From Bacteroidota bacterium (GTDB lineage: Bacteria; Bacteroidota; Bacteroidia; Chitinophagales; LD1): 57,412 nucleotides of DNA. The notes below the pieces were generated by a model. That model was not told the DNA's origin and ran no database searches. It saw nothing but the letters and a program-made list of their open reading frames with translations. This document shows, one piece after another, positions 32,672 to 48,847 of the stretch (positions are counted from its first letter, which is position 1; every line of letters starts with the position of its first letter). The DNA is taken from the NCBI GenBank assembly GCA_025963485.1, contig JAOQAO010000265.1:1-57412 (forward strand). Direction: 5' to 3'. A program made the position numbers and the translations under genes.

Positions 32672-32673
32672 TC

Positions 32674-32790: not shown

Positions 32791-32885
32791 TTTTTTATGA
32801 TTCAAGGTTACTCCTCATAGGGGCGAGTTCTTATTCTCTCCTGTTAAACAATTAAATCCCGACCTCATACGTCTTATTGAACTCC

Positions 32886-34094
32886 ATGAAAAACCTGAAC
32901 GTCATATCCGAGGACGAAAAAAAGTCCTTCGACCCGCTTCTCCAGAACATCATCGCCTACCGAAAGTCGGGATTGAGCCTCAATCACATCATTGGCTGCT
33001 CGCTCGACTGCGCGTACTGCGTCAGGCACTTCTTCGACAATTTTGAAATGAAGGAGCCGCAGATGCTTTGTAGTGACGAAGAAGCTGTAAACCAATTGGT
33101 CAATCATCAGTTCTTCATACCGAACGTGACACCCCTGCAATTATTCAATCGGGCAACCGATCCGTTTCTGACCGACGTAAAGAAGCACACGCACGAAGTC
33201 CTCAGGAGGCTCGACGGCATGGGTCTGACGAATCAGGTTCTTGTCATTACGCGGGCAAAAGTCACGAAGGAGGACATGGAGTTGCTGGAACAGCTAAAGA
33301 ACCTGCACGTATCACTTCTCGTAACCTATTCGGGAATTACCGACGTTAGGATAGAGCCCATTGCGAAGAATGGAATCACAGTACATTCGATAGAGACAAT
33401 CGCCCGATATAAGACGCGAACAAAGCTCATTCTCTATTGGCGTCCTATAGTGGTAGGATGGAATGACGACCCGGCCAGCTTTGAAAGGGTCTTTTGGATG
33501 GCGAGGTATGCGGATGCCATTGTCTATACGGGCTACTATCACCGACCTGAAAACCATGCCTACCTGAAAAGCATGGGCATACCAGTTCCTTACGGCGACT
33601 TTGCGCGTAGAAAGTTCCTACCCAACGAGCTTGAGAACAGGATTTTTGAGGCTTACAAGAACTCGGGGCTGACCGTACCCCTCTTTAGGAAAACGTCGTG
33701 CGGGGTGGCATACGCGCATAGGGTTCCCGATTACAACGGTCACTGGGGCGTCAATGAGCTGTGCGATATCTGTCCGAAGGAACAGAGAGACTTGTGCGAC
33801 AAAGGATACCAGGCACCCACCAGGGATGAGTTTCAAAAGCTTTTGGACGTGTATAATTACGATACTCCTTTTCTTATCGAGGATGGACACGTTTGGACTG
33901 AGGGTTTGGGAGAGGAACGACGCTACCACCTGCAACATACGCTTGGGTACCAGATATGGGACATTGAAAAGCCCCACTTCAAAAACCAGCACGGGCGCTC
34001 GCCATTCGGGCATGAGCAGACCAAGGAAAACGAGGCCTGGTATGAGGACATTAAAAGACAATTCACTAACGACATAAAGAAAGAAGATGACTGA
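32886..34094 (+). CDS. Radical SAM protein, spore photoproduct lyase/Rv2578c-like
   Basis: GCSLDCAYC (CxxxCxxC), ATDPF, RPIVVGWND; extra C-terminal Cys (KTSCG, CDICP..C). Confidence 0.88.
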   Translation: MKNLNVISEDEKKSFDPLLQNIIAYRKSGLSLNHIIGCSLDCAYCVRHFFDNFEMKEPQMLCSDEEAVNQLVNHQFFIPNVTPLQLFNRATDPFLTDVKKHTHEVLRRLDGMGLTNQVLVITRAKVTKEDMELLEQLKNLHVSLLVTYSGITDVRIEPIAKNGITVHSIETIARYKTRTKLILYWRPIVVGWNDDPASFERVFWMARYADAIVYTGYYHRPENHAYLKSMGIPVPYGDFARRKFLPNELENRIFEAYKNSGLTVPLFRKTSCGVAYAHRVPDYNGHWGVNELCDICPKEQRDLCDKGYQAPTRDEFQKLLDVYNYDTPFLIEDGHVWTEGLGEERRYHLQHTLGYQIWDIEKPHFKNQHGRSPFGHEQTKENEAWYEDIKRQFTNDIKKEDD

Positions 34095-34731
34095 ACTACA
34101 AAAATACAATCTGCCGTGGTGGCAATCGAGTTTCATCATCCTCGATCTCGAGGGGACCGGCTCCCAGCATAAGGAACTGGAGGGTATTGTTGAAATTGCA
34201 GCAATCGAGCTAAGCGGCAAGCAACTCACATCTAACTACTATTACAAACTCATCAATCCTCAGATTGAGATTCCTCCGATGATCTCTAAGATACACGGAT
34301 TGAAGAATAAGGATTTGGAAAATGAGCCCGACTTCAGCGTAATAAGGGAAGGGCTGTTCGATTTCATAAATGGCAAGATACTCGTCGGCCATAACGTGAG
34401 CGTAGACTACCGGGTGCTCAAACTCAAGATGCCTGACTACTGTCCATTGCTCATACTCGACACCAAGAAGATATCGAAACACTTTTGGGGCTCTGAACCG
34501 AAACACGGACTGGACGAACTGATCGAACGGTTCGGCATCAAGGACCAACTCACCGACTTGCCCGTAAAGAGGAACAGGCACAGTGCCTACTATGATGCGT
34601 ATGCCACCGGGCTGGTCTTTTTGAAAATGATTGAAGAAAAGCTGTCGGATGAAACGACCCTATCAGCGCTGGCGAATATTTGCAGCATTAACCCTGAATC
34701 CGACAAAAAGAGCCAAGGGTCACTATTTTAA
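34087..34731 (+). CDS. DEDDh 3'-5' exonuclease (DnaQ-like)
   Basis: ExoI LDLEGTG, ExoII GHNVSVD, ExoIII HSAYYDA. Confidence 0.92.
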   Translation: MTELQKYNLPWWQSSFIILDLEGTGSQHKELEGIVEIAAIELSGKQLTSNYYYKLINPQIEIPPMISKIHGLKNKDLENEPDFSVIREGLFDFINGKILVGHNVSVDYRVLKLKMPDYCPLLILDTKKISKHFWGSEPKHGLDELIERFGIKDQLTDLPVKRNRHSAYYDAYATGLVFLKMIEEKLSDETTLSALANICSINPESDKKSQGSLF

Positions 34732-34740
34732 AGAGAGAAA

Positions 34741-35316
34741 ATGGAAAAGATAAAAATAGGAATTGGAGGAACGCACAGCACAGGCAAGACCACGTTCATC
34801 AAAAGACTTTCTACGGCACTTACAGAAAAGTCAGTAGATCACCAGATAATAGGCGACCTGGCATCAAAGTGCCCGTTGCCGATTCTTCGCGATCATACTG
34901 TGGAAAGCACCCTTTGGATTGCTTCACAAGGAATTAACCTGGAGATTGAAGCTGGCCACAAGCACAAGGTTGTAATAGCAGACAGGCCCATACTGGACTG
35001 CTGGGCGTATTTCAATGCGGTTTGCAAAGGGCAATATCCCGAGACCAATCCAAAATTGCAGACATTGAAATCAATGATTTTAAATTGGCTACCTACGTAC
35101 GACCTGCTCTACCAAACCGTGGTAAATGAGAATATCCCGATAGAGGACAACAAGGGACGCGATTTAGACATCGTTTATCGTAGACGGGTCGCCGACGAAA
35201 TGACTGCCGGGAGCGTGCTGTTTAATGCCTCTCCTAAGCTTCTAACGTACGAAAATACTGACCAGGAACTCCAATTTATCCTCGACCAAATAGAGGGAGC
35301 AATCGGTAAATCCTAA
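34741..35316 (+). CDS. P-loop NTPase, nucleoside/nucleotide kinase-like
   Basis: GGTHSTGKTT Walker A; IADRPILD..AY; lid-like EDNKGRD. Confidence 0.82.
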   Translation: MEKIKIGIGGTHSTGKTTFIKRLSTALTEKSVDHQIIGDLASKCPLPILRDHTVESTLWIASQGINLEIEAGHKHKVVIADRPILDCWAYFNAVCKGQYPETNPKLQTLKSMILNWLPTYDLLYQTVVNENIPIEDNKGRDLDIVYRRRVADEMTAGSVLFNASPKLLTYENTDQELQFILDQIEGAIGKS

Positions 35317-35384
35317 TGGATAAAATATGAGCGGTATTTTGTCTTAAATTCTTTAATTTTTTCTTTAATCTGAGCTTGATTTAA

Positions 35385-35392
35385 TATATTTG
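35385..35392 (+). promoter_or_regulatory. Bacteroidota -7 promoter element
   Basis: TATATTTG 18 nt upstream of ATG 35411. Confidence 0.6.
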
Positions 35393-35410
35393 CAGCCTAA
35401 AATAAAAAGC

Positions 35411-35782
35411 ATGGCATCATCAGTTATCGCAACGGTTAACCTACCCGGTTATACAGATCAGAAAATCATATTTGCCGCAAGAGCAGAAAATGAGTCGTAC
35501 ACGTATCTAGCCCCAAAAGAAGCGGAGACTATTGAAAGTATACTCAAAGGATATCCCGACCATTTTTCTAAGGTATATGTAGACCACGACAGGGAAGATG
35601 ATGAAATCGTTGGTATTGAACCATCTTCCGCCCTTGCTGATGAGAAAAGGTTGGGTCGCAAGTTATATCTCCCTATTCAGGAAGTTTTAGAAGTCCTAAG
35701 TCCGAGCGACAAGTCTTTTTTTGATAAAAGTGATAAAGCGTTCGAAGGGTTTGACTACCCTTACCTGGTTGAAAAGTTATAA
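35411..35782 (+). CDS. Hypothetical acidic protein
   Basis: 123-aa ORF with its own promoter motif and a downstream hairpin. Confidence 0.72.
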   Translation: MASSVIATVNLPGYTDQKIIFAARAENESYTYLAPKEAETIESILKGYPDHFSKVYVDHDREDDEIVGIEPSSALADEKRLGRKLYLPIQEVLEVLSPSDKSFFDKSDKAFEGFDYPYLVEKL

Positions 35783-35819
35783 CTCCGTCCACAACGGTTA
35801 ACCGTTGTAAAGTTTTCAT

Positions 35820-35862
35820 AGGTTCAAAAGTGGTCATCTCGAAAGAGGTGGCCATTTTTTGC
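35820..35862 (+). repeat. 43-bp conserved hairpin/terminator repeat, copy 1
   Basis: aggttcaaaagtggtcatctcgaaagaggtggccattttttgc; 39/43 identical to 39016-39058. Confidence 0.85.
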
Positions 35863-35963
35863 TTCAAGCAAAAGTTTCTGAGCCATGAAATTCATATATT
35901 TACGTTACGTCACTGATACAAAGTGGTATATGAGGCGTGATAATTTTTATTCAATAGACTTCA

Positions 35964-37712
35964 ATGGAGCGCCCTGCCATCCAACTCATTCTCGATTATA
36001 AAACGTTCTTTGGCGCTGACCCAACGAATGACAGGCTCTCCCTCGTACGACATATCTGCAAAAGGAACCTTCTGGTAGAAATTGCCGGCTTGAATTACAG
36101 GTTGAAGCCCAACGATACTATATTTGTTGACGAAAGCTTCGACAGACAACGTAAGGAACTCGACTGGTTCACAAAAAATCCCGATCTCTATAGATACTAC
36201 TCGCAAATCGCTGCCCGTTATACAAAGAGCGTTGACGATTATCCCAATATTTTTAATCGCCCTGCTTGCTTATTCGCTCTGGAGGAAATTTCCAATTCTG
36301 ACATACCTGAAATAGAGGATTTCAATTTCACGAAACCGGAGGAATGGGAAAGTATCTTAAAGTACCTGCTCGCAGTTAATTTCCATATCACCCAGATTAA
36401 AAAGGAAAAGGACGGGGTTCAAGCTTCTTTCGAGAAAGTGAACCCCAAGCTGATCAGACTAAACGAACTCAGAGTAAAGACCGATCCGCTCTTTACTCTC
36501 TACAGGGGATATCGACTTATCACATATTTTGCAAGGAATCCTACTTATGCAAAGCACTTAGCGGAGTATTTCAATAAGACTTACGGGATGGATTACCAAT
36601 TTTTCCTTTCCTCTATCCTTCACATGTACAAGGCAAAAGTAAATGCCATTCCTGAAAATAACTTTTTGTTTAAACTAGGACGTTGCCAAGATTCTAGATT
36701 CCTCGATGCGCTAAGTAAACGTCACCGTGAGGAAAATGCTCTGCTGTTACTAGGCATCAGAAAGTCGCCATTCATCAAGCTCGCTCCGAGGGAATACATA
36801 ATGGGCGACAATGCCTTCTTGCTCGAAAAAACCTACTACCAGTTCATCAATGACTTTTGGTTTGACTGCATCAAACAAATATTGAAGCCGGACGGGAAAA
36901 ATCTGATTTCTCACCAACGTTATTTCGCGGATGTAGGGGTGTTCTTCGAGGAGTACCTGCGCGAGATACTGACGAATAGTTTTAAGAACTACGTCGCCTC
37001 AGTCCTTCTCACCTTTGACCAGCTAAAGCTCACCGGTGCGCAGGGCGAATTCGAGCTTTGCGACATCTACTTCCGTGCCGATCGGAAAGTGATAATCGGG
37101 CAAGCTAAAGCCACTGGTATATACGATGAGGCAAAATACGGAGGCGATATAGGTAAGCTTTACAAGGAAGATAGAGCGAAATTTTTCAAAAACTTCGGCG
37201 TCGATCAAGTAGTGAAGTCAATAAAAGACCTTTCTGCAAATATAAATCGCTTGGATACCACCTTCCCATCGACTGGCGAATGCGAGGTATATCCTTGCAT
37301 AGTCGTAAACGATAAGGCGCTCCAAACTGCATTAATGAATCATGTTTTCAACCTGAGATTCCAAGAGCTCATAACCGGCTTTTCTGACAAAAACCTTAAG
37401 GTTCACCCCCTGACGCTCATACATGTGATGGATCTCGAAAACGTAGAGGAAGCCCTTTCAAGTAATCCGCAACTTATTTGGAACCTGCTGGATAATACCA
37501 TTGGTCACCCCGCATTCCTTATGCCCTTCTACACCTCAGTTTACAAGCTTTTACCGCACATCTCATACCCCGCAAAGTTGCTCACGGCTTTTACCGAACT
37601 GTTTGATAAGCATAATTCGCAATTTAAGTTTTCATTAACCCGAATTACAAACAAGCTTATCGACCGCATCAAAGGATTGCCCAATTTACGAAAGAATGGA
37701 TTGGCGGTGTGA
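35964..37712 (+). CDS. Hypothetical protein with a C-terminal PD-(D/E)XK/NERD-like domain
   Basis: 582 aa; GVFFEEYL...ELCDIYF......IIGQAKA (E..D..QxK); GVDQV. Confidence 0.65.
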   Translation: MERPAIQLILDYKTFFGADPTNDRLSLVRHICKRNLLVEIAGLNYRLKPNDTIFVDESFDRQRKELDWFTKNPDLYRYYSQIAARYTKSVDDYPNIFNRPACLFALEEISNSDIPEIEDFNFTKPEEWESILKYLLAVNFHITQIKKEKDGVQASFEKVNPKLIRLNELRVKTDPLFTLYRGYRLITYFARNPTYAKHLAEYFNKTYGMDYQFFLSSILHMYKAKVNAIPENNFLFKLGRCQDSRFLDALSKRHREENALLLLGIRKSPFIKLAPREYIMGDNAFLLEKTYYQFINDFWFDCIKQILKPDGKNLISHQRYFADVGVFFEEYLREILTNSFKNYVASVLLTFDQLKLTGAQGEFELCDIYFRADRKVIIGQAKATGIYDEAKYGGDIGKLYKEDRAKFFKNFGVDQVVKSIKDLSANINRLDTTFPSTGECEVYPCIVVNDKALQTALMNHVFNLRFQELITGFSDKNLKVHPLTLIHVMDLENVEEALSSNPQLIWNLLDNTIGHPAFLMPFYTSVYKLLPHISYPAKLLTAFTELFDKHNSQFKFSLTRITNKLIDRIKGLPNLRKNGLAV

Positions 37713-37741
37713 GACAATGATTGTTACATTTGATAGTTACT

Positions 37742-38614
37742 ATGGAACATCCTCTTACAAAGAAGCATCACTACATCCCCGAATTCTTCATAAAGAACTT
37801 CTGTGATGAGGATGGGAAAATCTACATCTACGACAAACTAACAAAGCGATATCTGGGAAAGAAAAGCCCTGGAGGCATCTTCTACGAGATGCATAGGAAT
37901 ACCATAGACATCAACGGCACTAAAACTGACAATTTTGAAAAGCTGTACTCGGCCCTCGACGACCGGTTTGCAAAGGCGATAATCCGCGTCATTACTACTA
38001 AAGTCCTAAACGTAGAAGAAGACCTCATGAGTCTCCTGTTATTTGCCTCAACTTTGAAATGGCGAGTACCTGCAATCGACGCCTCTTTCAAGGAACTAAA
38101 AGAAAATTTGAAGTACGAGGATTTACCAATTACCATCAAGCCAGTTGATAAAAACGATGAGGTGAATGCCGAAATGCTCGACCACATTATAAATTCAAAT
38201 GCATTTAAGGAATCCATGAGAACAATAATTCCTTCCATCCCATTTCTTAAGAGCGGAGAAAAATTATTGGGCTATAACGACGGAAGTTTTATCTATACTG
38301 ATGAGAGGATCATTTCGGTTCTTGGTGACTGCGGTTTGGTCGAAATACAGGGAGGCGCCTTTGATGAGTTGAACAGCTTTGTGATGCCATTGAGTAGTCA
38401 TACTACTTTCGTTTACAAAGCAGGAAACAGGCGGTCAATCAAATCATTGGCTTTCTTTATGGCCCGTGACCTTTTATCCGTTCACCGATCCGAAAGGTAC
38501 GTAGGCTGCAAAAGCAAGGAACACCTTGAAAACGTAATTAATACCTATAACGGCGTAAGCGACAAAAGGTCGGCGGACGCCCTCGAACATGTTCTTTTTG
38601 AGGATATTTCATAA
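37742..38614 (+). CDS. DUF4238 domain protein
   Basis: N-terminal TKKHHYIPEFFIKNF, FEKLYS.LD, WRVP, LGD and MPLS motifs. Confidence 0.85.
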   Translation: MEHPLTKKHHYIPEFFIKNFCDEDGKIYIYDKLTKRYLGKKSPGGIFYEMHRNTIDINGTKTDNFEKLYSALDDRFAKAIIRVITTKVLNVEEDLMSLLLFASTLKWRVPAIDASFKELKENLKYEDLPITIKPVDKNDEVNAEMLDHIINSNAFKESMRTIIPSIPFLKSGEKLLGYNDGSFIYTDERIISVLGDCGLVEIQGGAFDELNSFVMPLSSHTTFVYKAGNRRSIKSLAFFMARDLLSVHRSERYVGCKSKEHLENVINTYNGVSDKRSADALEHVLFEDIS

Positions 38615-38678
38615 TTACTAACATCACTATAAAATCGGGTTCCTTTACGTTATTTTAGCCTTAGTTAAATTTACTGCT

Positions 38679-38981
38679 ATGCTGGCATATTCGATACCAA
38701 TAGATGGACAAGTGCTCTGCTTCGGAGATGGTGATCTTGAGCCATTGCTCGTTACTGACAACGAGCTATGTTCGTTAGAAATGCTGAACTATAACGGCTG
38801 TGCTTTAATCGATGGGCAAATAATAGAAGTTGCCGAGCTGCTTCCCCTGTTTGAAAAGGCCAAAGCCCGAATCCCGAGCATTCTCAGTTCTGTGTACTCA
38901 AATAAAATTAGGGTTGACGAATTAAGCCTTGATTATATGCGCGACCAAAGGTTCCTAAGACAGCCCTACCTAAATTGCTAA
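38679..38981 (+). CDS. Hypothetical protein
   Basis: 100-aa ORF, co-oriented with cargo, followed by the repeat hairpin. Confidence 0.55.
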   Translation: MLAYSIPIDGQVLCFGDGDLEPLLVTDNELCSLEMLNYNGCALIDGQIIEVAELLPLFEKAKARIPSILSSVYSNKIRVDELSLDYMRDQRFLRQPYLNC

Positions 38982-39015
38982 ACGCGCCTGGCTCATAAGA
39001 TATTTGCTTTTACAC

Positions 39016-39058
39016 AGGTTCAAAAATGGTCATCTCGATAGAAGTGACCATTTTTTGC
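39016..39058 (+). repeat. 43-bp conserved hairpin/terminator repeat, copy 2
   Basis: aggttcaaaaatggtcatctcgatagaagtgaccattttttgc. Confidence 0.85.
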
Positions 39059-39070
39059 ATACGGGGAATT

Positions 39071-39149
39071 CCAAAAGGGCATCCCTTTTGGCAGGATAGC
39101 ATCCTTCACCACAAATTTTTCATTTGTATGGTGAAGGATGCAATCCTGC
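39071..39149. other. Two abutting inverted repeats, candidate oriT
   Basis: ccaaaaggg-cat-cccttttgg, then gcaggatagcatccttcacca...tggtgaaggatgcaatcctgc; 14 nt from the relaxase stop. Confidence 0.45.
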
Positions 39150-39163
39150 TTCGCCCCAAGTAA

Positions 39164-40060
39164 TCATAATATCGTTTCATCAATCCCTCTGTCATACTCC
39201 TCCAATTCATTCAGCCGCTCTTGCTCCTCAGTCACATTGTCATCAAGTGTCTGGGTCAGTTCCTGTTCTATGTTCGGTTCATTTACTATTTCGTTTAATC
39301 GCTGTTCACGCTGATCGAGCTCTGCGAGGTCAGCCCCTAAGGTCGCGAATCTGTAGTTGCGGTTATCCCTGATGCCAGCTACTTTTCCTGACCTCTCGTA
39401 GGTTTCCAATCCTTCGCCACGTAGCAATCCGAAAAAAGTATCTCTTGATGTAGCCAATTCCATCGAGTCCGCCACAATCTGTTCGATTTCGCTTTTCCGG
39501 CTCACCTTGCCGGCGTTGGTCATCTGCCATTCGTTCTCGCTGATGCTCCGTTCATCCTTGCCGTGCTCGATGTTGGAATACACTAGCTCGGGATAAAGTT
39601 CGCGAGATATCCTTTCGAGCTCCTGCTTCATATTTTTGAAGTCCTGCTTTGACTGCCTCGTGCTGTAGCCCATCATGTCAACGCCCGAGGTCAGGACGTG
39701 GCTATGAGGGTGCTTGCCGGGCTCCGACATATGAAGTACGCCGTAGTGCAGGGCATCGGGGTACATCTTCATGTACTCTCGGCTCAGCCTGATCAGCATG
39801 TCGCTCGTCACTTCGTCCTTGTTCGACAAGGAAAATATCATATGAAGAAGCATGTTGTTGTTGCCGTCGCCGCGCTTGTGAACCCTGCCGGCCTCATTGG
39901 CTTTGAACTGTTCCAAGATTTCCTCGGGACTGCCGAATACGTTGTGCTTGATGCTGATGATGTCGTTGTTCTTGTCCCTGAGGGCTGCGTCCCTGTTGAC
40001 GTAGTCGAGAAGGTACGAGAAGCTGCCGCCTCCTTTAGCTCCTATGGACTTTATCATCAT
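39164..40060 (-). CDS. Relaxase/mobilization nuclease
   Basis: N-terminal YLLDYV, LLHMIFS, HUH motif VLH....KHPHSH. Confidence 0.88.
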   Translation of the reverse strand: MMIKSIGAKGGGSFSYLLDYVNRDAALRDKNNDIISIKHNVFGSPEEILEQFKANEAGRVHKRGDGNNNMLLHMIFSLSNKDEVTSDMLIRLSREYMKMYPDALHYGVLHMSEPGKHPHSHVLTSGVDMMGYSTRQSKQDFKNMKQELERISRELYPELVYSNIEHGKDERSISENEWQMTNAGKVSRKSEIEQIVADSMELATSRDTFFGLLRGEGLETYERSGKVAGIRDNRNYRFATLGADLAELDQREQRLNEIVNEPNIEQELTQTLDDNVTEEQERLNELEEYDRGIDETIL

Positions 40061-40605
40061 GGCCTACGCTTGCTATCGGTGATGAGAGCTATGATTTCAT
40101 TCCACCTTTCAGGGTGTGCTGCAATGGTCGCCAGCAGCAGCGTAGGATTTGTGAGCTCATTGTGCACCTGCGTTTTCATTTCTCGCACGCTTTGGCGCAG
40201 CTCGCTATAGTCATTGTCCCTCATGATCCAGTTCTTCGTTTCTCTCGCGGCTATCCGCTCTATCGCCGTAAGTACACGCGAAAGGTGCGCCTCGATCCGC
40301 TTCACTGCGACTGCATCAGGAGCGACATATACTTGCTGCACGTAAGCCAATCCTGACTGCTTCAAAAAAGTCGAGAGCGGCATGGTGCGAAGTTTTGCCT
40401 CGCGAGCCATGCGCTTATTCTCCTCAGGTGTGAGTGTTATCTTCACTTCACATAAACGCCCCCTCCGTCTTGCCTGATACTCCTTATTCTTCATTGCCCA
40501 GTATCTCTGACGCGCCTCCGCGATCTCCAGCGCGTCGCCCTTTTCCAAAAGCCCTTCGATAGACTGCAAGTAGTCCAATACGCCAGATGACTTCCTGCGG
40601 CTCAT
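40057..40605 (-). CDS. MobC-like relaxosome accessory protein
   Basis: VKITLTPEE...AK...MPLSTFLK ribbon-helix-helix-like segment; 4-nt overlap with the relaxase. Confidence 0.6.
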   Translation of the reverse strand: MSRRKSSGVLDYLQSIEGLLEKGDALEIAEARQRYWAMKNKEYQARRRGRLCEVKITLTPEENKRMAREAKLRTMPLSTFLKQSGLAYVQQVYVAPDAVAVKRIEAHLSRVLTAIERIAARETKNWIMRDNDYSELRQSVREMKTQVHNELTNPTLLLATIAAHPERWNEIIALITDSKRRP

Positions 40606-42035
40606 GAAAACTGTATGAGGTCTAATGTTTCGGGAATATGAGGATTTGAAAAAACGAAGGCCGCGCCCTTCGTTCGCATCCTAAGTATGGGGTTCTTGAA
40701 CCAAGGCTGGAGCGTAAGCCTGAAAGGCTGGTTGCGGTAAAAGAGCAGCCCGCGATCTTTAGGCATCTTCGCTATCTCCTCGGGCTTCATGAGGTGCTCG
40801 CTGCGCTTCCTGCCGTCAGCCCCCTTAAAGTCGCTCTTGCAGAGCTCAGCGAGGTCGCGGCTTGTACTTATATCTTGATGTCCGTAATAGGCATGGGAGC
40901 AATTAAGCAAAATATTTCTTCCAATTTGTGCTCCATAGGCATCAATCATTTGCGAGGGAGATTGGTAAAAAATACAGTTCTTCAAATTGTATTTTTTCGA
41001 GTTAGATACGCACTGCGAAAGCGATTTTAAATTCAATGTGCTGCACTCGTCCAGGAGCAGGTACACCGGCAGTCCGCCATCAGGCACCTGCTTCATGAGC
41101 GTGCGGAGCGCACTCTCTATTACGATGCTCGTAAGATTGTTATAAAAAAAGCTGTCATAGGTGCCCGTTTCTATGTATAGGATTTGCCGCTTGTCACGAA
41201 AGGTGGAGAAGTCTACTGATGACTTCACGGACGCTCTGCACAGCGCGTCTGACGAAAACGGATTGAGGGCCACGAGCGCGCTCATGATGATCCCCGACAT
41301 GGTCTTGTCGCTCGCCGTGCTCCTGTAATACTTGTATTCATCCCAGAGCTTAGGGGTAGCAGCCTTAGCCACCAACTTGTCGAGCATGCCCTTCGTGCTC
41401 AATGCCTGAATGATCTGCCTGACGCAGCCCATGTGTTTGTATCGCGGCTCAAGCCTACGGCACATGCGCATGGCCCATGAGGTCAGGCCTACGGCAGAGC
41501 TATTGAAAAACATGTCCGCCTTCTCGCCGTCAAGCGCGGTGCGCACGAAGTGGTCAGCAAGTAAGTTGGCATCTTCATCAGACGTTGCGTAGTCAAGGAG
41601 GTTAATGCTGCTAGAAGCCAAAATATCTGAGTACGAGAGCCGGTGTATCTCGACGCCCATTTCTGCCATGCGCGGCGCGGTGAGAGGAAACACCGTACCC
41701 GAGCTGTCATGCACGATGTATGAAGCATTGGAGCTATAGAGCAGCGTGGGAATTAAGCAATTGCTTGTTTTTCCAACGCCTGTGCTGCCGAACACGGCGA
41801 GATTGTTGATTCTCTCGAGGTCGAGAGCATTTTCCCCGTCTATGACGAATCCTTCGCCGTGCCTCTCTGCGATATCTTCGAGCTTTCCAAAGCTCCGCCT
41901 GACACGGCTGCCATCTGCTCGCTCTATCGTTTCGCGTATGTTGGTCACGATGTCAGTAGCCACCATTTCGGCGGCCGCGGCCCCTATGCCGGCGAGCTTT
42001 CGGAACGATGACGAAAACATGCTGCTGTCACTCAT
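40602..42035 (-). CDS. Type IV coupling protein (TraG/VirD4 family)
   Basis: Walker A GSTGVGKT, Walker B LLLDEC, FYQSPSQM...YG and LMKPEEI motifs. Confidence 0.87.
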   Translation of the reverse strand: MSDSSMFSSSFRKLAGIGAAAAEMVATDIVTNIRETIERADGSRVRRSFGKLEDIAERHGEGFVIDGENALDLERINNLAVFGSTGVGKTSNCLIPTLLYSSNASYIVHDSSGTVFPLTAPRMAEMGVEIHRLSYSDILASSSINLLDYATSDEDANLLADHFVRTALDGEKADMFFNSSAVGLTSWAMRMCRRLEPRYKHMGCVRQIIQALSTKGMLDKLVAKAATPKLWDEYKYYRSTASDKTMSGIIMSALVALNPFSSDALCRASVKSSVDFSTFRDKRQILYIETGTYDSFFYNNLTSIVIESALRTLMKQVPDGGLPVYLLLDECSTLNLKSLSQCVSNSKKYNLKNCIFYQSPSQMIDAYGAQIGRNILLNCSHAYYGHQDISTSRDLAELCKSDFKGADGRKRSEHLMKPEEIAKMPKDRGLLFYRNQPFRLTLQPWFKNPILRMRTKGAAFVFSNPHIPETLDLIQFS

Positions 42036-42198
42036 TTTTGAATAGTTTGGATTTCAAGTAGTCTACTATGGATCGGAGAAGGATGGAGATCGCGCTCAAC
42101 GTCACCCACAGGCAGAAGCCAACTGCCTTAAGCAGCCACGTGCCCATGAATTTAAAAACGTCACCCGCTATCTGGGCGGCATCATTATTTCTTTTCAT
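42028..42198 (-). CDS. Small membrane protein
   Basis: 56 aa from MKRNND; one hydrophobic helix; overlaps both neighbours. Confidence 0.6.
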   Translation of the reverse strand: MKRNNDAAQIAGDVFKFMGTWLLKAVGFCLWVTLSAISILLRSIVDYLKSKLFKNE

Positions 42199-42946
42199 TG
42201 AGATTGGCTGCTTCAAGTGACGGAACGATGACGCAGGTTGCGCCGCCGTTCTCAAATAGGGTTTTGTAGAAGTTGGCCGCCACGAGGAACTTGTCCTCAG
42301 TATCACCATCTCCGTTCATGCTTTGGTAGACGATGATCACGCGCAGACCGGTGACGTTCTTGAGCGCCGCTACCTTCCTGAGCGACTGAATCACCTCCAT
42401 CGGATGCGCCTGCACCTGGTCGCGGAGCACCTGGCTATAGAAGTCGAGGTGCCTGTCATGGTCCAACATATTGCTATAAATTATCATGTAATGCTCGGCA
42501 GCGGACACCTCCATACAGGCATTTGCCTCGGACACCACTACGCTGTATATGCAGCTTCTTTTCATGGGCACCATATTGTTCTTCTGCGCGTCATCGAATA
42601 CCTGCCGCAGGTTCTGCTTGAACGTCTTGAGCTCCTGTACGCGCTCCTGATCGCTCGCGAGCGCCGCGGAAACAGGAGGCACTTTGAGCGATTGCACAGG
42701 AGTTAGTGCAACGTCGGATATTGAACGGTACCTCATAGTCATACCTGAGTACAAGTGGGTATCGTCATTGAGGCGCAGGATGTTGATCACATCGGAGGCG
42801 TCGGGATTCTTGCGCAATGGGTCGGTACCATCGGATATGACGCTGACGGCTATGCTGTCATCCTTCCAAATCAGGTTTTCGATTTTTTTGCATCCCGTAC
42901 CAAAGGTGGCGGCGATGATGAGAAGTGTTGCGGTTAGCTTTTTCAT
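42185..42946 (-). CDS. Lipoprotein, possibly degenerate vWA-like
   Basis: Lipobox ..FGTG-C; VSVISDGTD and MIIYSNMLD resemble vWA strand motifs. Confidence 0.7.
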   Translation of the reverse strand: MKKLTATLLIIAATFGTGCKKIENLIWKDDSIAVSVISDGTDPLRKNPDASDVINILRLNDDTHLYSGMTMRYRSISDVALTPVQSLKVPPVSAALASDQERVQELKTFKQNLRQVFDDAQKNNMVPMKRSCIYSVVVSEANACMEVSAAEHYMIIYSNMLDHDRHLDFYSQVLRDQVQAHPMEVIQSLRKVAALKNVTGLRVIIVYQSMNGDGDTEDKFLVAANFYKTLFENGGATCVIVPSLEAANLNEKK

Positions 42947-42970
42947 TGTTTTGTTTTTTATCGTTATGAA

Positions 42971-44014
42971 TTATTGAAGTGATGGTATAGGGTCGTCATA
43001 ACATGGCACTGCCGTCGTATCAGAGCGGTACCTGCGATTTTCTGATATGTATGTACTGATACAGGCCCTGTGCAGGGACTCGAACTTGAGTGTGATTGCC
43101 TCGGCTTCGCCCGCTTGCCTCACTATCCTCTGCTCTATGCTCATGAGCCTGTCGGGGATGCGATCAAGCTCGCTCTTGAGCCTGTCCTTCTCTACACGTA
43201 TGGCTTCGAGCCGCGTGTCCAGAGACCTCGCGCTCATGTTATTGAGTTTCGCATCGGTGCTCGGCAAAAGTGACGTCAGATACACTCCTATTCCTATGAA
43301 TAGAAGATTTATGAATATGAAATACCACACAGGTATCTCGTGGGTGTTAGTGACCGCCACCGACTTGAGCGTGGTCTCTCCGATATTGACCAACCTGTTA
43401 CTGCGCATGAGAGCGATCACGTAGAAAGCCCCTATAGCTATCGCCGCCAAGCAGAGCCGTATGATGTTTTTCTGCGGCAGGTTCTCCGTACCGGTGTATA
43501 CAGCGAGAATCACCTTCGGCACGAAGTAGTAGATGAGGGAGAACACTGCCAAAAGGAGTATCTGGTAGATGTTGGAGTAAGCCTCGTAGTATGAGAAAGC
43601 GCTCGCCGTGAGCTTGGCCTCTCCGATGCACAGGACGATGCACACCGCGTATATCCACCAGGTCTTCGTCACCTTGTAGTCGGCGGCGGGGAGGCTATCG
43701 CGGTCAAGGGTCAGCCTCCGCTCCTCCTGCTGCAGGCCGTCGAGGTCTTTGCTGATACGCTCCTTGTTCTCCGTGAGCGCCACGCGCTCAGCCTCGGCCA
43801 GCCTACTCTGATCGGCAGCATACGGCTTGAGCTGCCGTATCATCTCGTTCCTGTAGGCATCGGTGAACTTGCCCGTGTAGGTGTACAGTTTGTCGGTTAC
43901 AGACGGCTGCGATGCGGCAGCCGTGGTGCGCCCGAGCTGTAGCGCCTGCGTGACTTGTCCGTTATGGAAGATATCTACGGCGTCCCCCTGCGCCTCTTTG
44001 CTTTTGAAAAACAT
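42971..44014 (-). CDS. Membrane protein with flanking coiled coils
   Basis: 347 aa; four hydrophobic segments between heptad-rich regions. Confidence 0.8.
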   Translation of the reverse strand: MFFKSKEAQGDAVDIFHNGQVTQALQLGRTTAAASQPSVTDKLYTYTGKFTDAYRNEMIRQLKPYAADQSRLAEAERVALTENKERISKDLDGLQQEERRLTLDRDSLPAADYKVTKTWWIYAVCIVLCIGEAKLTASAFSYYEAYSNIYQILLLAVFSLIYYFVPKVILAVYTGTENLPQKNIIRLCLAAIAIGAFYVIALMRSNRLVNIGETTLKSVAVTNTHEIPVWYFIFINLLFIGIGVYLTSLLPSTDAKLNNMSARSLDTRLEAIRVEKDRLKSELDRIPDRLMSIEQRIVRQAGEAEAITLKFESLHRACISTYISENRRYRSDTTAVPCYDDPIPSLQ

Positions 44015-44029
44015 GACATTTGATTTTGG

Positions 44030-44299
44030 TTATTTAATATTTTCGATTTCTTCTTCTTGTATCTGATCGTCCAACCGTAGTAGCTCCATTTCTCTCTCCC
44101 ACGCAATCTGGTCTTCCTCCCGGGCCAGCTGGCTCTCTTGCCACCTGAGCACCTCGCCTGAGAGGGTGCGGTCCTCACCCGTGTCATCATGCGACCTTTC
44201 TTTCCACTGATCGAACCTTGCCCATATCTCCGGCATGTCGGATTCTTCCAACCTGTATTTCTTGAGCTCCTCCTGCGTTAATCTATATGCCATGGCCAC
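44030..44299 (-). CDS. Hypothetical acidic protein
   Basis: 89 aa, tight operon spacing. Confidence 0.6.
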   Translation of the reverse strand: MAMAYRLTQEELKKYRLEESDMPEIWARFDQWKERSHDDTGEDRTLSGEVLRWQESQLAREEDQIAWEREMELLRLDDQIQEEEIENIK

Positions 44300-44316
44300 T
44301 TATATTTTGACAGTTT

Positions 44317-44598
44317 CTAGTTGTTGTCAGTGTTCATTTTGCGTATGGCAGCCGCTTGAGCTACCGCCGCTTTGTAAAGTGGCGTATCACCGAGGCCAAC
44401 CTCCGCGATGGTCTGCACCAGAGCGTCCATCTGATCGTCAGGCCGGGTAGCCATCAAGTAGTGATAGTATTCCTCAAGATCACTGGCGCGCCTGCGGACA
44501 GGCGGGGTCGCCACCTTTTCGTCTGTAACATCTTCTACCTTGTTGAGAAGCGACAGTGACATGTCACCGCCGTTCTCCGGTGTAGCTTTATTTTTCAT
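44317..44598 (-). CDS. Hypothetical protein
   Basis: 93 aa, tight operon spacing. Confidence 0.6.
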   Translation of the reverse strand: MKNKATPENGGDMSLSLLNKVEDVTDEKVATPPVRRRASDLEEYYHYLMATRPDDQMDALVQTIAEVGLGDTPLYKAAVAQAAAIRKMNTDNN

Positions 44599-44782
44599 GG
44601 CTTTGGATTGTAAGTGTTGTGAGATAGTTGTTCAGGCGCAGGTGGCGTTCCGATGCCGCACGGACAAATTCGGCGACTGAGGATTCATCTGTATAGATGT
44701 CCTTTATGTGCGGTACCGGTATTGCTACCTGTGATGTCTGTGGAGCATTTGAGCCCAGATCGGTGGTTGGTGTATTTTTCAC
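44588..44782 (-). CDS. Hypothetical protein
   Basis: 64 aa, GTG start, overlaps the next gene. Confidence 0.45.
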   Translation of the reverse strand: MKNTPTTDLGSNAPQTSQVAIPVPHIKDIYTDESSVAEFVRAASERHLRLNNYLTTLTIQSHEK

Positions 44783-45338
44783 GCTTTAGAATTTTCGGTT
44801 TTGGGTAACCGAGCGCGATGCACCTGATGGCAAGAGATGGCTATTGACACATATATATAAATACACTATACTTCCAAATGGGGAAGTTTATATATTTGCA
44901 ATAGCAAATAGCACCGCATGGCCAAAAGCCAGCGATGCATATTTTCCTGCCGTGGCGGATGCACCCGCTACGGTTTTTGTTTTTTATGCCTCACGGCATG
45001 ACAGATACAATTCCAGAAACTGCCGGCGCACCTTTTCAAGTCCCGCCTCATACCCTTATCCTTTTTCGTTGATTAGCAAATATTTCCTACCTTGAGGTTT
45101 GTGAGGAAAGGTATATCCTCGGGTATGTATTGCAAAATAAAGCCAATACACCGATATATCCAAGTTTATCTAAGAAAAATAATATTGCATGATAGTAACT
45201 AAATATGAATGAATTACGTAACAATAAATAAATTCAACTATTAATTTTTACAATTTTAGCCTACGTATGTACCCTTTGCAAAGACAAATTTACTCATTAT
45301 TCTTGCGCACTTCGTTTTAAAAACCATAACAATATCAT

Positions 45339-46865
45339 ATGCCGAGACCAAAAAATCCCTTTTATTCCATCGCGAGCCTTAGAGGCTTGGAGACCCTGTA
45401 TGCGCTGATGCACAACATTAGCCTGCGGCTGCCAAGAGGCCAGTACATAGACGAGATACAGAAGGCTTTGCATAAGGATAATGTAGGGGTTGGCGGCAAG
45501 AGCCGGAATTTCGTGCTGAAGTTCTTGGGCGAACCGGATACGGAAATCGACAAGGTGTCGGGCATAGATTTGGATATCATTGATGAGATCGTCAAGAAGG
45601 TTTACAAATGGTCAGACTTGCATCAGCACTTCGGTATAGACATTGATAACGTAGAAAGCCCCGCGTCTTCATTTGAAGAAGAAATATTCGGAGCTCCTGC
45701 GCATCTTGCAGCCATGGACAACGACTTTTACTATTACACCTATCTGAGCGAGGACGATCAAAAGTCTGTAGATGAGTTTGTAAAAAGAAGAATGTATGAA
45801 CTCGGCAAGATAACTGACGGCATCACTACCTACAGCGTTTACCAATGGGACACTGAGGCAAAAACTGCCAGGTGCGCCATACTCGCGCTAAACCCCGAGA
45901 AAAAGGCCGCGTGGTATTACTACTTTGCCTCTGGCGCCAAAGGTGTGCGACCGACTGTTCTCAAAACTGGAAGGTACGACCATGGGGCTAACATCCTCAG
46001 CCTTGACATGGTCAATGAAAATGCGCGCAGAAAATTTCTGCGCGTCAACTTCATGCTCGCTGTTCTTGATCCGAGCCTATCTGGCGCCAAGACCCTGAAA
46101 GGTGCCCTAATGGCTACGGCAAACAATGGCACCATGGTTGTCTCTGCTGAGTGTGTATTAGAGCACTGCACTTCATACTTTGAAGCGCTTAAAAGAGTAA
46201 CAAATACAAAAAGTCGAGAATCCCTCCTCTGTTTAGAGGTACTGAACAAAAAGTATGAGGTTGACAATGCCAACATCTATGACATTCAACGCCTCGACTC
46301 CTATCCTCTTTCTAGGGTCTTAGATGGGATCAGCGGATATTACCTCATTGAATACATTATGCAGGACGGCACTAATGAGGGAGCTGATACATCCCTTCAA
46401 AAAGGGCTTTGCTATATTGGAATGGATGGATTGGTTTCGCTATGGTTTGCAGCGGTAAAAGATGAGCTCAAGGGGTATTTGGACCAGCAGAAGTATCGCG
46501 GAAACAAGTTCATAGTGATAAACCTCTTCCAATCGAGACAGAGCGACCATATCGAAGTAAATTACAAACTGGAAATATTCAGGGACCACTCTAAGCTAGG
46601 AACTGTTGAGTATCTTCACGGGGTATATACTAGCTTCTATCTCGATACCATGTACAAAGGCGAGATAGTCTTCATGAAACTTGATGGTGGCGGCTGCCTC
46701 AGTGAGAAAAAGTTCATTGATATAGAGGAGTGTCGCAAAAAAGTGGGAAGTCTCGACCCAATAAAAATTACAGACGGTGTTTCCTTAAACGATATTGATA
46801 CGCGCGCAAAAAAACTTCTGGATGTGAAAAAATACGACCACTACGGCCGAAACAATCCGACCTAA
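45339..46865 (+). CDS. Hypothetical protein
   Basis: 508-aa ORF divergent from the mobilization operon; no family recognised. Confidence 0.8.
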   Translation: MPRPKNPFYSIASLRGLETLYALMHNISLRLPRGQYIDEIQKALHKDNVGVGGKSRNFVLKFLGEPDTEIDKVSGIDLDIIDEIVKKVYKWSDLHQHFGIDIDNVESPASSFEEEIFGAPAHLAAMDNDFYYYTYLSEDDQKSVDEFVKRRMYELGKITDGITTYSVYQWDTEAKTARCAILALNPEKKAAWYYYFASGAKGVRPTVLKTGRYDHGANILSLDMVNENARRKFLRVNFMLAVLDPSLSGAKTLKGALMATANNGTMVVSAECVLEHCTSYFEALKRVTNTKSRESLLCLEVLNKKYEVDNANIYDIQRLDSYPLSRVLDGISGYYLIEYIMQDGTNEGADTSLQKGLCYIGMDGLVSLWFAAVKDELKGYLDQQKYRGNKFIVINLFQSRQSDHIEVNYKLEIFRDHSKLGTVEYLHGVYTSFYLDTMYKGEIVFMKLDGGGCLSEKKFIDIEECRKKVGSLDPIKITDGVSLNDIDTRAKKLLDVKKYDHYGRNNPT

Positions 46866-47018
46866 AGAAAGATTTCCTATTTAAAGTGATAGTGAAAGCT
46901 CACCACTCATATACTTATTATACTCCTGTAAGCAAATTTGCTTTGCAAAAGTAAGGGGCATGCGTCCAAGTCGCACATCCCTGCTGTGATTACTGATCAC
47001 TCAATGGAAGATAGGAAT

Positions 47019-47045
47019 AAAAAAAACCGCATCATCTGCGGTTTT
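47019..47045. terminator. Bidirectional terminator at the integrase 3' end
   Basis: aaaaccgca-tcatc-tgcggtttt. Confidence 0.7.
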
Positions 47046-48255
47046 ACAATTCAAACACCTTGCGACTGTACTCATCGGTGGTTTTCTTCGGCAGACTATC
47101 GAGATAGCGCTGGGTGGTCCTCAAATCCTTATGGCCCAAGAACTCGCTGATAGCGGTGAGCGGTATACCGATGTCATTGGCACGAGTGGCAAACGTATTT
47201 CTGATCACGCTGCTCGATACCTCCTCCGGCAACCCGTAGGCAGGTGCAAACTCTTTCAGGATTTTGTTGAACTTCCTGCGCTTGTCGAGCACCTGGTAGT
47301 ACTGCTTCTTCGGGTCTGTGGAAGTGATGCAAGGCAGTATGTAGTCTTCGGGTCCCTTTCCTTTGGCGTAGAGATCAATGATGTCTTTTGCCTGCGGTGG
47401 TATCTCGATGTCGAGCGGGCTACCTGTTTTCCTCCTGTCATATTTGAGGCGGCCGTGATTCATATACTTCATCTTAAGATAGGCCAGATCAACGAAGCTC
47501 ATGCCGCGCAAAAAGTACATCAGCAAGAAAAAATGCCTGACCCATTGATGCTTTCTCTTTTGAGTTTCTGTCAGCGCCACGACCGTCTTGACCGATGATT
47601 CAGGCATCGCCTTCTTGCCCGTGCGCTTGCCTTTGATCTCATAGAGCTTGAAAGGATAGAGATCAGCATCTACCAAGCCCTTTTTAATCGCCTTGTTGTA
47701 GATAGCGCGCACCGTCCTCAAATAAACCGAAAGGCCATTGACCTTATTGCCCTTGGCATAGTGCGCCGTCTCAAAATCAGTAAGGAAGTCGTAGTTAATC
47801 TCCCTGAAAGTGAGATCGCGGCCTTTGTTGAAGTTACGGAATGCGGCAACGGTGTCGCTATAAACCCTGGCGTTTCCGATCTGCTGTGCCTTTTCCATAG
47901 CCTCAATGAGCTCAGTGGCAAATGCGAAGAACGACTGAGTTCCTTTCTTGCCTTCGAGGTGCTGCTTGATCTGCTTCGCCGTCATGCCGGTGAGCCTGCC
48001 CGCCTCGTCGAGTTTGGTGATCTTGTCAGTAGCTAGTGTCTGCTTTTTCAGTAAATAGTTGTTGAGCCGGGTTACCGACTGTGTGCCTCGGTAAGAAGGA
48101 GTGATGCATCTTGCTTCCTCGTCCCAATACTCAGGCTTGACGGCTATGCCGGTAATGACCTGCGCAGGCTTCCTAAAGTGCACGATTCGGAGAACGACGT
48201 GGCAGGTTCCGTCGGGCTTAGGGTGATTGTCGAGTGCGAGTTTTACAGTAGTCAT
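47044..48255 (-). CDS. Site-specific tyrosine integrase, Bacteroidota arm-binding type
   Basis: N-terminal arm domain (KPDGTC.V.LRI...TGI.V....WD), SAM-like domain, GMSFVD, RRKTG, VIRNTFAT and LGHKDLRTTQRY; next to attR. Confidence 0.93.
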   Translation of the reverse strand: MTTVKLALDNHPKPDGTCHVVLRIVHFRKPAQVITGIAVKPEYWDEEARCITPSYRGTQSVTRLNNYLLKKQTLATDKITKLDEAGRLTGMTAKQIKQHLEGKKGTQSFFAFATELIEAMEKAQQIGNARVYSDTVAAFRNFNKGRDLTFREINYDFLTDFETAHYAKGNKVNGLSVYLRTVRAIYNKAIKKGLVDADLYPFKLYEIKGKRTGKKAMPESSVKTVVALTETQKRKHQWVRHFFLLMYFLRGMSFVDLAYLKMKYMNHGRLKYDRRKTGSPLDIEIPPQAKDIIDLYAKGKGPEDYILPCITSTDPKKQYYQVLDKRRKFNKILKEFAPAYGLPEEVSSSVIRNTFATRANDIGIPLTAISEFLGHKDLRTTQRYLDSLPKKTTDEYSRKVFEL

Positions 48256-48284
48256 TATTCATATTTTTTTGTGGTGAACATTCG

Positions 48285-48303
48285 TAATAAGCATATAATA
48301 AGC
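48285..48303. repeat. Probable integrase arm-type site (right)
   Basis: taataagcatataataagc. Confidence 0.7.
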
Positions 48304-48375
48304 AGATGCACTTTTGGAATGGACGCATATTTGTTCATTTGAACAAATATTGTTCATTATCAATGATTTACGAAG

Positions 48376-48383
48376 CAAATATA
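48376..48383 (-). promoter_or_regulatory. Bacteroidota -7 element, candidate integrase promoter
   Basis: CAAATATA on + reads TATATTTG on -, about 120 nt upstream of the integrase. Confidence 0.45.
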
Positions 48384-48402
48384 AATAATAACTGATGATT
48401 TT

Positions 48403-48451
48403 CCTGCTTTGGGAGCAGGGGGTCCCAAGTTCGAATCTTGGTACCCCGACA
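48403..48451 (+). repeat. attR core (3' half of tRNA-Pro)
   Basis: Identical to 17246-17294; lacks the 5' half of the tRNA. Confidence 0.95.
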
Positions 48452-48452
48452 C

Positions 48453-48486
48453 AAGACCCTCACTAAATAGTGAGGGTCTTTTTTTT
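48453..48486 (+). terminator. Probable original tRNA-Pro terminator
   Basis: aagaccctcacta-aa-tagtgagggtctt plus a T tract. Confidence 0.8.
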
Positions 48487-48492
48487 ATTTTA

Positions 48493-48749
48493 ATGATATT
48501 CTACCTTTATATATTAGAATCTGAACCTACAGGCAAATTATATATCGGCCAAACGAATGATGTTGACGATCGTCTCATTCGTCACAATACAGGCCGAAAT
48601 ATTTACACGAAAGGAAAGGGCCCCTGATTACTTTTGTTTTCCAAAGCCTTTGCTACCAGAAAAGAGGCATATCAACTGGAACAAAAATTGAAATCCTGGA
48701 AAAACCCGGTAAAGTGAGAGAATGGATAAAGGCAAAAACGAACGGTTAG
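48493..48749 (+). pseudogene. GIY-YIG nuclease pseudogene
   Basis: FYLYILES..TGKLYIGQT.D...RL..HN.G....TK.KGP* (TGA where family members have Trp), continues RKEAYQLEQKLKSWKN, then a frameshift, ending TAG 48747-48749. Confidence 0.88.
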
Positions 48750-48802
48750 CGCATCCCGACTTCGGTCGGGAGGGTCCCAAGTTCGAATCTTGGTACCCCG
48801 AC
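48743..48802 (+). other. tRNA-Pro-derived fragment with the anticodon arm replaced by a UUCG hairpin
   Basis: cggttagcgca[tcccgac-ttcg-gtcggga]gggtcccaagttcgaatcttggtaccccgac; both flanks identical to tRNA-Pro. Confidence 0.9.
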
Positions 48803-48811
48803 TTGAAAATC

Positions 48812-48847
48812 AAGCGGTTAGATGTAAAAATCTTAACCGCTTTTTTT
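48812..48847 (+). terminator. Terminator resembling the attL terminator
   Basis: aagcggttaga...tcttaaccgctt plus a T tract. Confidence 0.7.

Follow-up and report, generated by a model that had tools for sequence, protein, structure and literature searches.

Why should a copy of a tRNA gene that has exchanged its anticodon arm for a foreign hairpin stand at the end of a small nuclease gene? The question is raised by contig JAOQAO010000265.1 of a Bacteroidota genome (hereafter G000), whose whole 57,412-nt stretch is called here the window. A sequence-only reading of the window had seen in this locus a minimal selfish unit that targets tRNA genes, composed of a GIY-YIG nuclease and an anticodon-less tRNA mimic. 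We found that the G000 cassette is a decayed member of a widespread cassette family, whose hairpins, tRNA fragments, and nucleases allow the possible origins of the arrangement to be compared.

Anatomy of the locus

All the elements previously named (tRNA copy, terminator, GIY-YIG gene, arms, and hairpin) lie where they had been placed (Table 1), and sequence identity confirmed that a 17-nt anticodon arm has given way to an 18-nt perfect hairpin between exact matches of 11 nt before and 31 nt after. The cassette unit measures about 350 bp and has no integrase of its own. The neighboring island encodes integrases, coupling proteins, and a methylase. Since an exact 49-nt copy of the 3' part of tRNA-Pro adjoins a tyrosine integrase, positions 48403 to 48451 were assigned to the attR of this 31-kb island; their last 31 nt are also the left direct repeat of the cassette. 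An ordinary att duplication had been judged insufficient, and rightly so: it explains 48403 to 48451 only, while in 48743 to 48802 the tRNA matches enclose a foreign arm and the nuclease gene adjoins. To gauge chance, we examined the 37 tRNAs that were called in G000; none had a hairpin-interrupted cognate copy within 500 nt.

Table 1. Features of the tRNA-Pro locus in the window
Feature	Position	Strand	Basis or remark
Intact tRNA-Pro(TGG), cognate gene, also island attL	17218..17293	+	ARAGORN and sequence
Integrative island, ~31 kb, between tRNA and cassette, outside the cassette	17295..48402	.	49-nt att repeat
Island tyrosine integrase	47044..48255	-	PF00589/PF13102/PF17293
attR, anticodon arm to 3' end of tRNA-Pro	48403..48451	+	49-nt exact repeat
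Intrinsic-terminator-like hairpin and T run	48453..48487	+	Sequence
Slx1/UPF0213-like GIY-YIG nuclease pseudogene, ATG 48493, stop TAG 48747-48749	48493..48749	+	PF01541
Short left arm, 11 nt = tRNA D-loop/D-stem 17235-17245, contains the nuclease stop	48743..48753	+	Identity
Perfect 7-bp palindromic hairpin, 18 nt, TCCCGAY-loop-RTCGGGA family	48754..48771	.	Replaces the 17-nt anticodon arm
Right arm, 31 nt = tRNA 17263-17293 (variable loop, T arm, acceptor 3' strand)	48772..48802	+	Identity
Second terminator-like hairpin, common to G005	48812..48847	+	Resembles attL island-side flank ~17296-17338

The decay of this copy, described earlier as a Trp-to-stop change and a frameshift, was also recovered. 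The first 43 codons of the pseudogene match PF01541 (E = 8e-8), an in-frame TGA at 48625 to 48627 occupies a position where relatives have Trp, the gene is 1 nt short near 48709 to 48711 when compared with intact relatives, and the shifted frame runs to its stop within the 11-nt D-loop match. We rejected an assembly error as the cause of the two lesions: a contig of public run X1 covers 48422 to 48801 with zero differing letters, X1 being possibly the source sample and hence not independent. We also rejected a tRNA-Pro(CGG) relic as the identity of the fragment: ARAGORN does not call it, the acceptor 5' strand is missing, the body is that of tRNA-Pro(TGG), and the loops of relatives are not CGG. 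After the last tRNA copy, the flank at 48803 to 48870 resembles the island side of attL (17294 to 17385) and is followed by a short direct repeat, as is also the case in G005, a genome of the same genus. A search for another att copy gave none, and this flank may thus be what remains of an earlier island.

A minimal nuclease close to UPF0213 and Slx1

The cassette nucleases are single-domain proteins of about 80 to 90 residues (the 84-codon type) with no separate DNA-binding domain. The PF01541 match, the catalytic set (Y, Y-x-G, R, H, and E), and the fold place them in the GIY-YIG superfamily, the G000 copy itself being broken; Y6, Y17, G19, R27, H31, T39, E63, and K67 are invariant in 61 homologs. 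The structural model (pLDDT of 90.8) and the profile match the UPF0213 proteins 1ZG2 and 1YWL (E values of 3e-19 and 1e-15), then Slx1, and rank I-TevI and UvrC below these. The protein consists of a minimal GIY-YIG domain that lacks the C-terminal Asn extension and is nearest to 1ZG2/Slx1. It scored 18 to 22 bits with TIGR01453 (cut-off of 56), and only weak homing-endonuclease matches were obtained with NCBIfam and PHROGs.

Six other small GIY-YIG genes of G000 carry an NPxW tail (in C2, C251, C268, C109, and two in C229), two of them with internal stops. GTCA-tagged inverted repeats clearly flank five of the six, and from these flanks we take the paralogues to be probably Ssn-like. Used as a control, their loci contained no tRNA. 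The cassette nucleases are shorter than these paralogues, do not have their tail, and share 25% profile identity with them. Because the best matches are UPF0213 and Slx1 and the NPxW tail is missing, the sequences point to a position of the cassette nuclease outside the Ssn clade (cd10448).

Decay and selection among close relatives

The same unit, with an intact gene of 83 to 84 aa and 72 to 75% identity, was found at tRNA-Pro(TGG) in three genomes of the genus (G001, G003, and G005) and in one of the family (G036). The loci of G001 and G003 end in a truncated additional unit. In G005 two units are spaced 345 bp apart, and in the second the Trp codon that is lost in G000 has likewise become TGA. 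Within the genus (11 genomes), 3 genomes have one or more intact genes, 1 (G000) a broken one, 2 remnants, and 1 a gene-less copy; in 3 others none was seen and in 1 the tRNA was not assembled. These include decayed gene starts (G007 and G009), a terminator only (G006), a gene-less hairpin copy (G008), two genomes with no cassette trace seen (G002 and G010), and one, 73% complete, whose assembly lacks the tRNA (G004). Hairpins homologous to the first terminator lie 5' of the gene in G001, G003, G005, G007, and G009 and 3' of the tRNA in G006. The loop of the cassette hairpin reads CTTG or TTTTA in the four relatives with an intact gene, CTTG being that of the three nearest, and the stem alone is kept. 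In G000, G008, and G036 the T-arm allele of the tRNA fragment is the host's own. Vertical descent with decay fits the pattern within the genus as well as recent transfer does.

Synonymous sites have reached saturation in the comparison of G000 with G005 (pS of 0.81 to 0.87) and pN is about 0.18, and the stem and both arms are nonetheless kept. The dN/dS was 0.09 to 0.26 in pairs among G001, G003, and G005, and 0.49 between the two G005 copies, the latter from five changes. It follows that purifying selection acted on the nuclease gene and that the break in the G000 copy is recent.

In three genomes (G000, G003, and G005), islands separate the tRNA from the cassette. In G001 and at three other loci (L043, L050, and L055), integrase-side att fragments were found 5' of the cassette, and island-like flanks follow the last copies. 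In G005, the T-stem allele of the intact tRNA-Pro differs from that of attR and the cassette copies (C8:12771 versus 54572; L131 and L118), and therefore the island appears to have supplied the 3' end of the tRNA.

A cassette family linked to tRNA genes

The arrangement is not unique to the G000 locus, as relatives and a wide family carry it. The 61-row alignment was too little conserved to serve in locus scans, which were therefore run with one protein as the query. We pooled 213 loci, from which a duplicate of our own locus and one weak viral match were excluded, into 178 clusters at 85% identity, a sample skewed by the query words to relatives of the G000 cassette; 40 clusters were dropped for short flanks and 138 were scored. 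A same-strand intact tRNA was close by in 104 of the 138 (83 upstream and 21 downstream, 16 isotypes), in agreement with the minimal tRNA-linked selfish unit proposed at the outset, and no cluster (0/138) had a tRNA on the opposite strand only. For the 34 clusters without a called tRNA, closer inspection revealed att fragments or eroded copies in several and nothing in some. Tandem nuclease copies were found in 27 clusters, and the largest array, located behind a tRNA-Leu in the closed genome G179, has nine units with a period of 374 bp. The nuclease start and the hairpin are separated by about 245 to 340 nt, mostly 250 to 270, across phyla.

The nuclease profile matched 92 of the 151 genomes of the class (E = 1e-15; the tally includes the unpublished G147). 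No match to the nuclease was found among 50,697 phage records; viral contigs gave the one weak partial match excluded above, and plasmids gave one match (38%). The hairpin-substituted copies are also an annotation trap: in three cases (L015, L018, and L223), ARAGORN called them as real tRNAs of the wrong isotype (tRNA-Lys, tRNA-Ser, and tRNA-Phe, respectively).

The stem follows the enzyme

Under a strict automatic rule requiring cognate tRNA sequence on both sides, which undercounts and misparses at least L161 and L051, the hairpin lies inside a cognate tRNA copy in 59 of the 178 clusters. The link of homologous nucleases to cognate tRNA fragments, across isotypes and in tandem arrays (of up to nine units), is thus upheld. 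The commonest event was the base-to-base swap of the anticodon arm (29/59, in 12 isotypes); the remaining ones concern the D-loop, the anticodon loop, the variable region, or the T-loop, some as pure insertions, and several copies bear two or three hairpins. CTTCGG occurs in none of the 59 scored hairpins. A functional cUUCGg RNA tetraloop was rejected as a candidate: the loop is not conserved and is CTTG in the three nearest relatives.

We placed these traits on a tree of 54 nucleases (five unclear rows excluded, 80 columns, 20 of 51 inner branches open). The stem family changed 7 times (RI of 0.82; shuffle mean of 19.6), the isotype 28 times (RI of 0.53), and the arm 13 times (RI of 0.44). 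All three counts were below those of 300 shuffles and, because kin share labels, only their ranking is informative; by this ranking, the enzyme retains its stem while changing tRNA and arm.

The genome-wide count proposed by the sequence-only reading showed that the TCCCGAY stem alone is present in 7 copies in G000, against 2 in a reversed control, and in up to 33 in relatives. The six other copies of G000 lie outside open reading frames of at least 70 aa, and one of them is a terminator stem. Another replaces the anticodon arm of a second pseudo-tRNA (C252:18330-18480, minus strand), which lies in a 14-tRNA array and for which no adjoining nuclease and no cognate intact tRNA were found in the assembly. 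In G051 and G060, 13 sampled hairpin copies were mostly within other repeats or stem-loops and one was in frame in a gene. In the latter case (L256, G060 C9:82728), the hairpin is part of a longer inserted repeat, and the gene has a motif presumed to be that of MiaB. The hairpin was also found inside several other repeat families and in genomes without a match to the nuclease query.

Genomes with a nuclease match have modestly more hairpins (mean of 7.2 versus 2.0; P of 0.02 to 0.04), in a comparison where kin are non-independent and some hairpins belong to the cassettes themselves. Ten or more hairpins were found in 10 of 38 matched genomes and in 1 of 23 unmatched ones (P of 0.04). The difference was not robust to a stricter nuclease cut-off (P of 0.10 to 0.18, the count of 8/31 versus 3/30 giving 0.18).

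A short arm beside every hairpin position

The tRNA copies share a further regularity. In cassettes downstream of the tRNA (n = 50), tRNA homology starts 6 to 27 nt (median of 13) before the first hairpin, whichever arm is hit; the short arm of G000 has 11 nt. When the hairpin lies beyond tRNA position 30, the left arm has at most 19 nt in 17 of 17 cases, though 34 to 56 nt are available (P of 8e-5, by a rough uniform-junction estimate over 10 junction types). The mirror image is seen in cassettes with the nuclease before the tRNA (n = 9), where homology stops 6 to 21 nt after the hairpin, and in copies upstream of the intact tRNA, whose right arm has 5 to 19 nt in 24 of 24 cases where 21 to 64 nt are possible; no full-length upstream copy was found hidden among the called tRNAs. 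Among the 50 downstream cassettes, the short arm contains or adjoins the nuclease stop in 35; the stop precedes the arm in 8 and lies in the hairpin or beyond it in 7. Selection against complete cloverleaves was rejected as the cause of the short arm, as it cannot account for the D-loop and T-loop cases. The simplest reading of these arms is that the position of a break would be measured from the hairpin.

Proposed nick and repair, and the alternatives

From these observations we lean, with some reserve, to the following reading: G000 has a decayed copy of a small, likely selfish cassette, whose nuclease would recognize the hairpin, nick at a fixed distance, and be followed by repair from an intact tRNA allele. 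By analogy with SsnA, the Slx1-like enzyme would likely bind its own conserved stem as single-stranded or cruciform DNA and nick about 8 to 19 nt (about 12) from it, on either strand because the stem is a palindrome. The 5' side of the nick is assumed from SsnA, its polarity not being fixed by the data. The free 3' end would copy the intact tRNA and its flank from the sister and rejoin at the nick. A top-strand nick would give the order tRNA, terminator, nuclease, short arm, hairpin, and 3' part (the layout of G000), and a bottom-strand nick would give 5' part, hairpin, short arm, spacer, and intact tRNA (the upstream layout of relatives). Repair would bring back one functional tRNA, with the hairpin-bearing fragment left joined to the nuclease gene, and the resulting direct repeats, of 31 to more than 100 nt, would permit expansion and loss of arrays. 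The same activity may move the bare hairpin into other stem-loops. In G000, the island came later, entering the intact tRNA at its anticodon arm, and the nuclease broke afterwards.

Several points weigh on this reading. Short arms of 5 to 27 nt are a counterpoint to one fixed cut and would need chance extension, resection, or erosion. SsnA spares the reverse strand of its repeat, whereas nicking as proposed requires both strands. The base-to-base two-sided swap (29/59) is not accounted for by a single nick and needs a further step. No excision circle was observed, and the contigs of run X1 gave no joints. The three RNA runs gave only short pieces on the tRNA-derived stretch and have no bearing on expression either way.

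The sequence-only reading had offered three roles for the hairpin: protection of the copy from cleavage, a mark for its mobilization, or a tRNA-like RNA. The data favor the second. Protection gains little, because a mere resistance allele would not need a conserved stem, and here the stem is conserved, the arms vary or the hairpin is inserted, and an intact tRNA always adjoins. Protection is the core of a homing-type account, in which the native tRNA gene is the target of cutting (SegB being the precedent), the hairpin is a resistant allele, and repair spreads and amplifies the cassette. We regard this as unlikely. It would draw on the exact anticodon-arm swap being the commonest event (29/59, 12 isotypes), on the tree signal of the isotype (RI of 0.53), and on SegB, which cuts within tRNA genes and drives tRNA-segB tandem amplification (PMC13096335). 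Yet an uncut target remains beside the gene, the occupied allele keeping its intact tRNA, which argues against simple immunity; the hairpin sits in different arms within one nuclease clade (RI of 0.44); the conserved stem is dispersed far from tRNAs; and the proteins, of about 84 aa and without a separate DNA-binding domain, are nearer to Slx1/UPF0213 than to I-TevI.

The purifying selection on the nuclease and its wide occurrence (a family match in 92 of the 151 class genomes) could also reflect a function useful to the host, with a structure-specific nuclease domesticated under tRNA read-through, where arrays raise dosage or dead copies act as decoys or alternative attachment sites. The islands between tRNA and cassette (G000, G003, and G005) and the att fragments or island-like flanks elsewhere would agree with such decoys, but islands integrate anyway, selection is equally expected on a selfish gene, and the cassette is patchy and decaying within a single genus of 11 genomes, so we consider this account quite improbable.

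Still less credit goes to an effect at the RNA level, in which the transcribed copy would serve as an anticodon-less tRNA mimic or as a stable 3' untranslated region with control over the nuclease mRNA. The hairpin exceeds the native arm in stability (-7.3 versus -5.2 kcal/mol, DNA parameters) and the T arm remains folded; 35 of 50 cassettes have a stop codon that overlaps the fragment, and L044 has near-full-length copies. Against this, CTTCGG is found in 0 of 59 loops, the acceptor 5' strand is absent in G000 and nearly all downstream copies, upstream copies end before the acceptor 3' strand in 24 of 24, the same hairpin occurs at non-tRNA sites, and Rfam gives nothing at the gathering level over the tRNA copy. 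A cUUCGg-stabilized form of the tRNA mimic proposed by the sequence-only reading is not supported: the loop varies, the downstream copies stand behind a terminator, and nearly all copies miss one acceptor strand, L044 being the single near-full-length exception.

That tRNA 3'-end duplications passively collect a hairpin repeat moved by another enzyme, such as the Ssn-like paralogues, with the nuclease as a bystander, is hardly believable: the hairpin does occur in other repeat families and in genomes without a query match, and G000 does have six other small GIY-YIG genes, but the spacing from nuclease start to hairpin (about 245 to 340 nt, mostly 250 to 270) holds across phyla, the stop codon lies within the arm, and the stem family tracks the tree of the cassette nuclease.

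Comparison with known systems

The cassette resembles both Ssn/NTS and SegB, yet lacks a defining feature of each. SsnA, a 94-aa GIY-YIG nuclease, binds its palindrome in a sequence-specific manner and cleaves single-stranded DNA at a distance of a few nucleotides on the upstream side, and the authors of that work compared NTS-ssnA-NTS to a mobile element (PMC11893778). Ssn (SsnA, cd10448) shares with the cassette a single-domain GIY-YIG of less than 100 aa next to a short palindrome with a TCCCG...CGGGA-like stem that is dispersed in the genome. Ssn genes are flanked by oriented SRM repeats with a conserved nonpalindromic 5' tag (CGTCA in NTS), whereas the cassette has one hairpin per unit, 3' of the gene and in a tRNA fragment, with direct repeats and arrays. 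The flanks of the cassette hairpin are cognate tRNA sequence that changes with the isotype, and most hairpins have no GTCA tag. The word tRNA has no match in PMC11893778.

SegB of T-even phages (PMC13096335) is also a free-standing GIY-YIG nuclease by tRNA genes of many isotypes, with tandem amplification, and its 3' end is joined to tRNA sequence; amplification proceeds through microhomology of the segB 3' end with the 5' end of the tRNA. It is, however, a phage double-strand homing endonuclease that amplifies intact tRNAs, whereas the cassette belongs to bacterial chromosomes and has a partial, hairpin-substituted tRNA. Adjacency to tRNA genes is common to both (104/138 clusters here); phage origin and a separate DNA-binding region were not found in the cassette. 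Slx1-like/UPF0213 proteins (1ZG2 and 1YWL) are the best sequence and fold match, with a minimal GIY-YIG domain, but the neighborhoods given for the prokaryotic stand-alone members in the accessible text of PMC1564403 are methyltransferases and restriction systems, without tRNA fragments or hairpins.

Integrative islands, one of which occupies this very tRNA-Pro, likewise keep one intact tRNA through partial duplication, but the cassette has no integrase, is about 350 bp long, and its duplicate matches both sides of a substituted arm. IS200/IS605 and REP-associated transposases are HUH enzymes that carry out strand transfer, and GIY-YIG enzymes are hydrolases; the cassette's hydrolase, in contrast to these transposases, would need host repair. 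IS200/IS605 and REP-associated tyrosine transposases with their REP/BIME arrays resemble the cassette, as summarized in part in PMC11893778, in combining an enzyme with a short hairpin that accumulates in the genome.

As the sequence-only reading had supposed, no description of a tRNA-nested hairpin-nuclease arrangement was found in full-text searches of the open literature; subscription journals and supplements, the Ssn repeat tables among them, could contain some of these hairpins. As a more tentative proposal, which we hold possible rather than probable, the cassettes may form a distinct minimal class of mobile element without transposase, integrase, or RNA guide, in which an 84-aa nicking enzyme and an 18-nt palindrome would use tRNA genes as self-repairing landing pads. 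Reading the hairpin alone would lead to retargeting between isotypes and arms, to arrays, and to hairpin insertions into stem-loops across Bacteroidota, Ignavibacteriota, Patescibacteria, and others, each clade being a hairpin-addressable nickase with its own stem code. If true, the GIY-YIG nucleases that read hairpins would comprise another branch in addition to Ssn, with a route of mobility dependent on tRNA genes and host repair. One of the most frequent "putative endonuclease" families in Bacteroidota would then have a role, and an abundant, unnamed short palindrome found in tRNA copies, terminators, other repeats, and reading frames would have a source. A cut position is predicted from the short-arm rule, and cognate enzyme-hairpin pairs are predicted from the tree.

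Other features of the window

Inside the island, at 22175 to 24917, a second tRNA-Thr(TGT) (23906 to 23979) lies between two more tyrosine integrases, and no partial copy of it was found elsewhere in the assembly. The contig opens with a long inverted repeat, and it also has short palindromes of the CCCTCTCC type and, between two Por-secretion-tail genes, a 31-nt inverted repeat; these features occur at 1 to 197, 2012 to 2751, 10656 to 10721, and 28632 to 28783. Downstream of the cassette, a 1,553-aa open reading frame (51026 to 55687) is made of collagen-like Gly-X-Y repeats, and 51-nt repeats extend toward the contig end (55900 to 57050).
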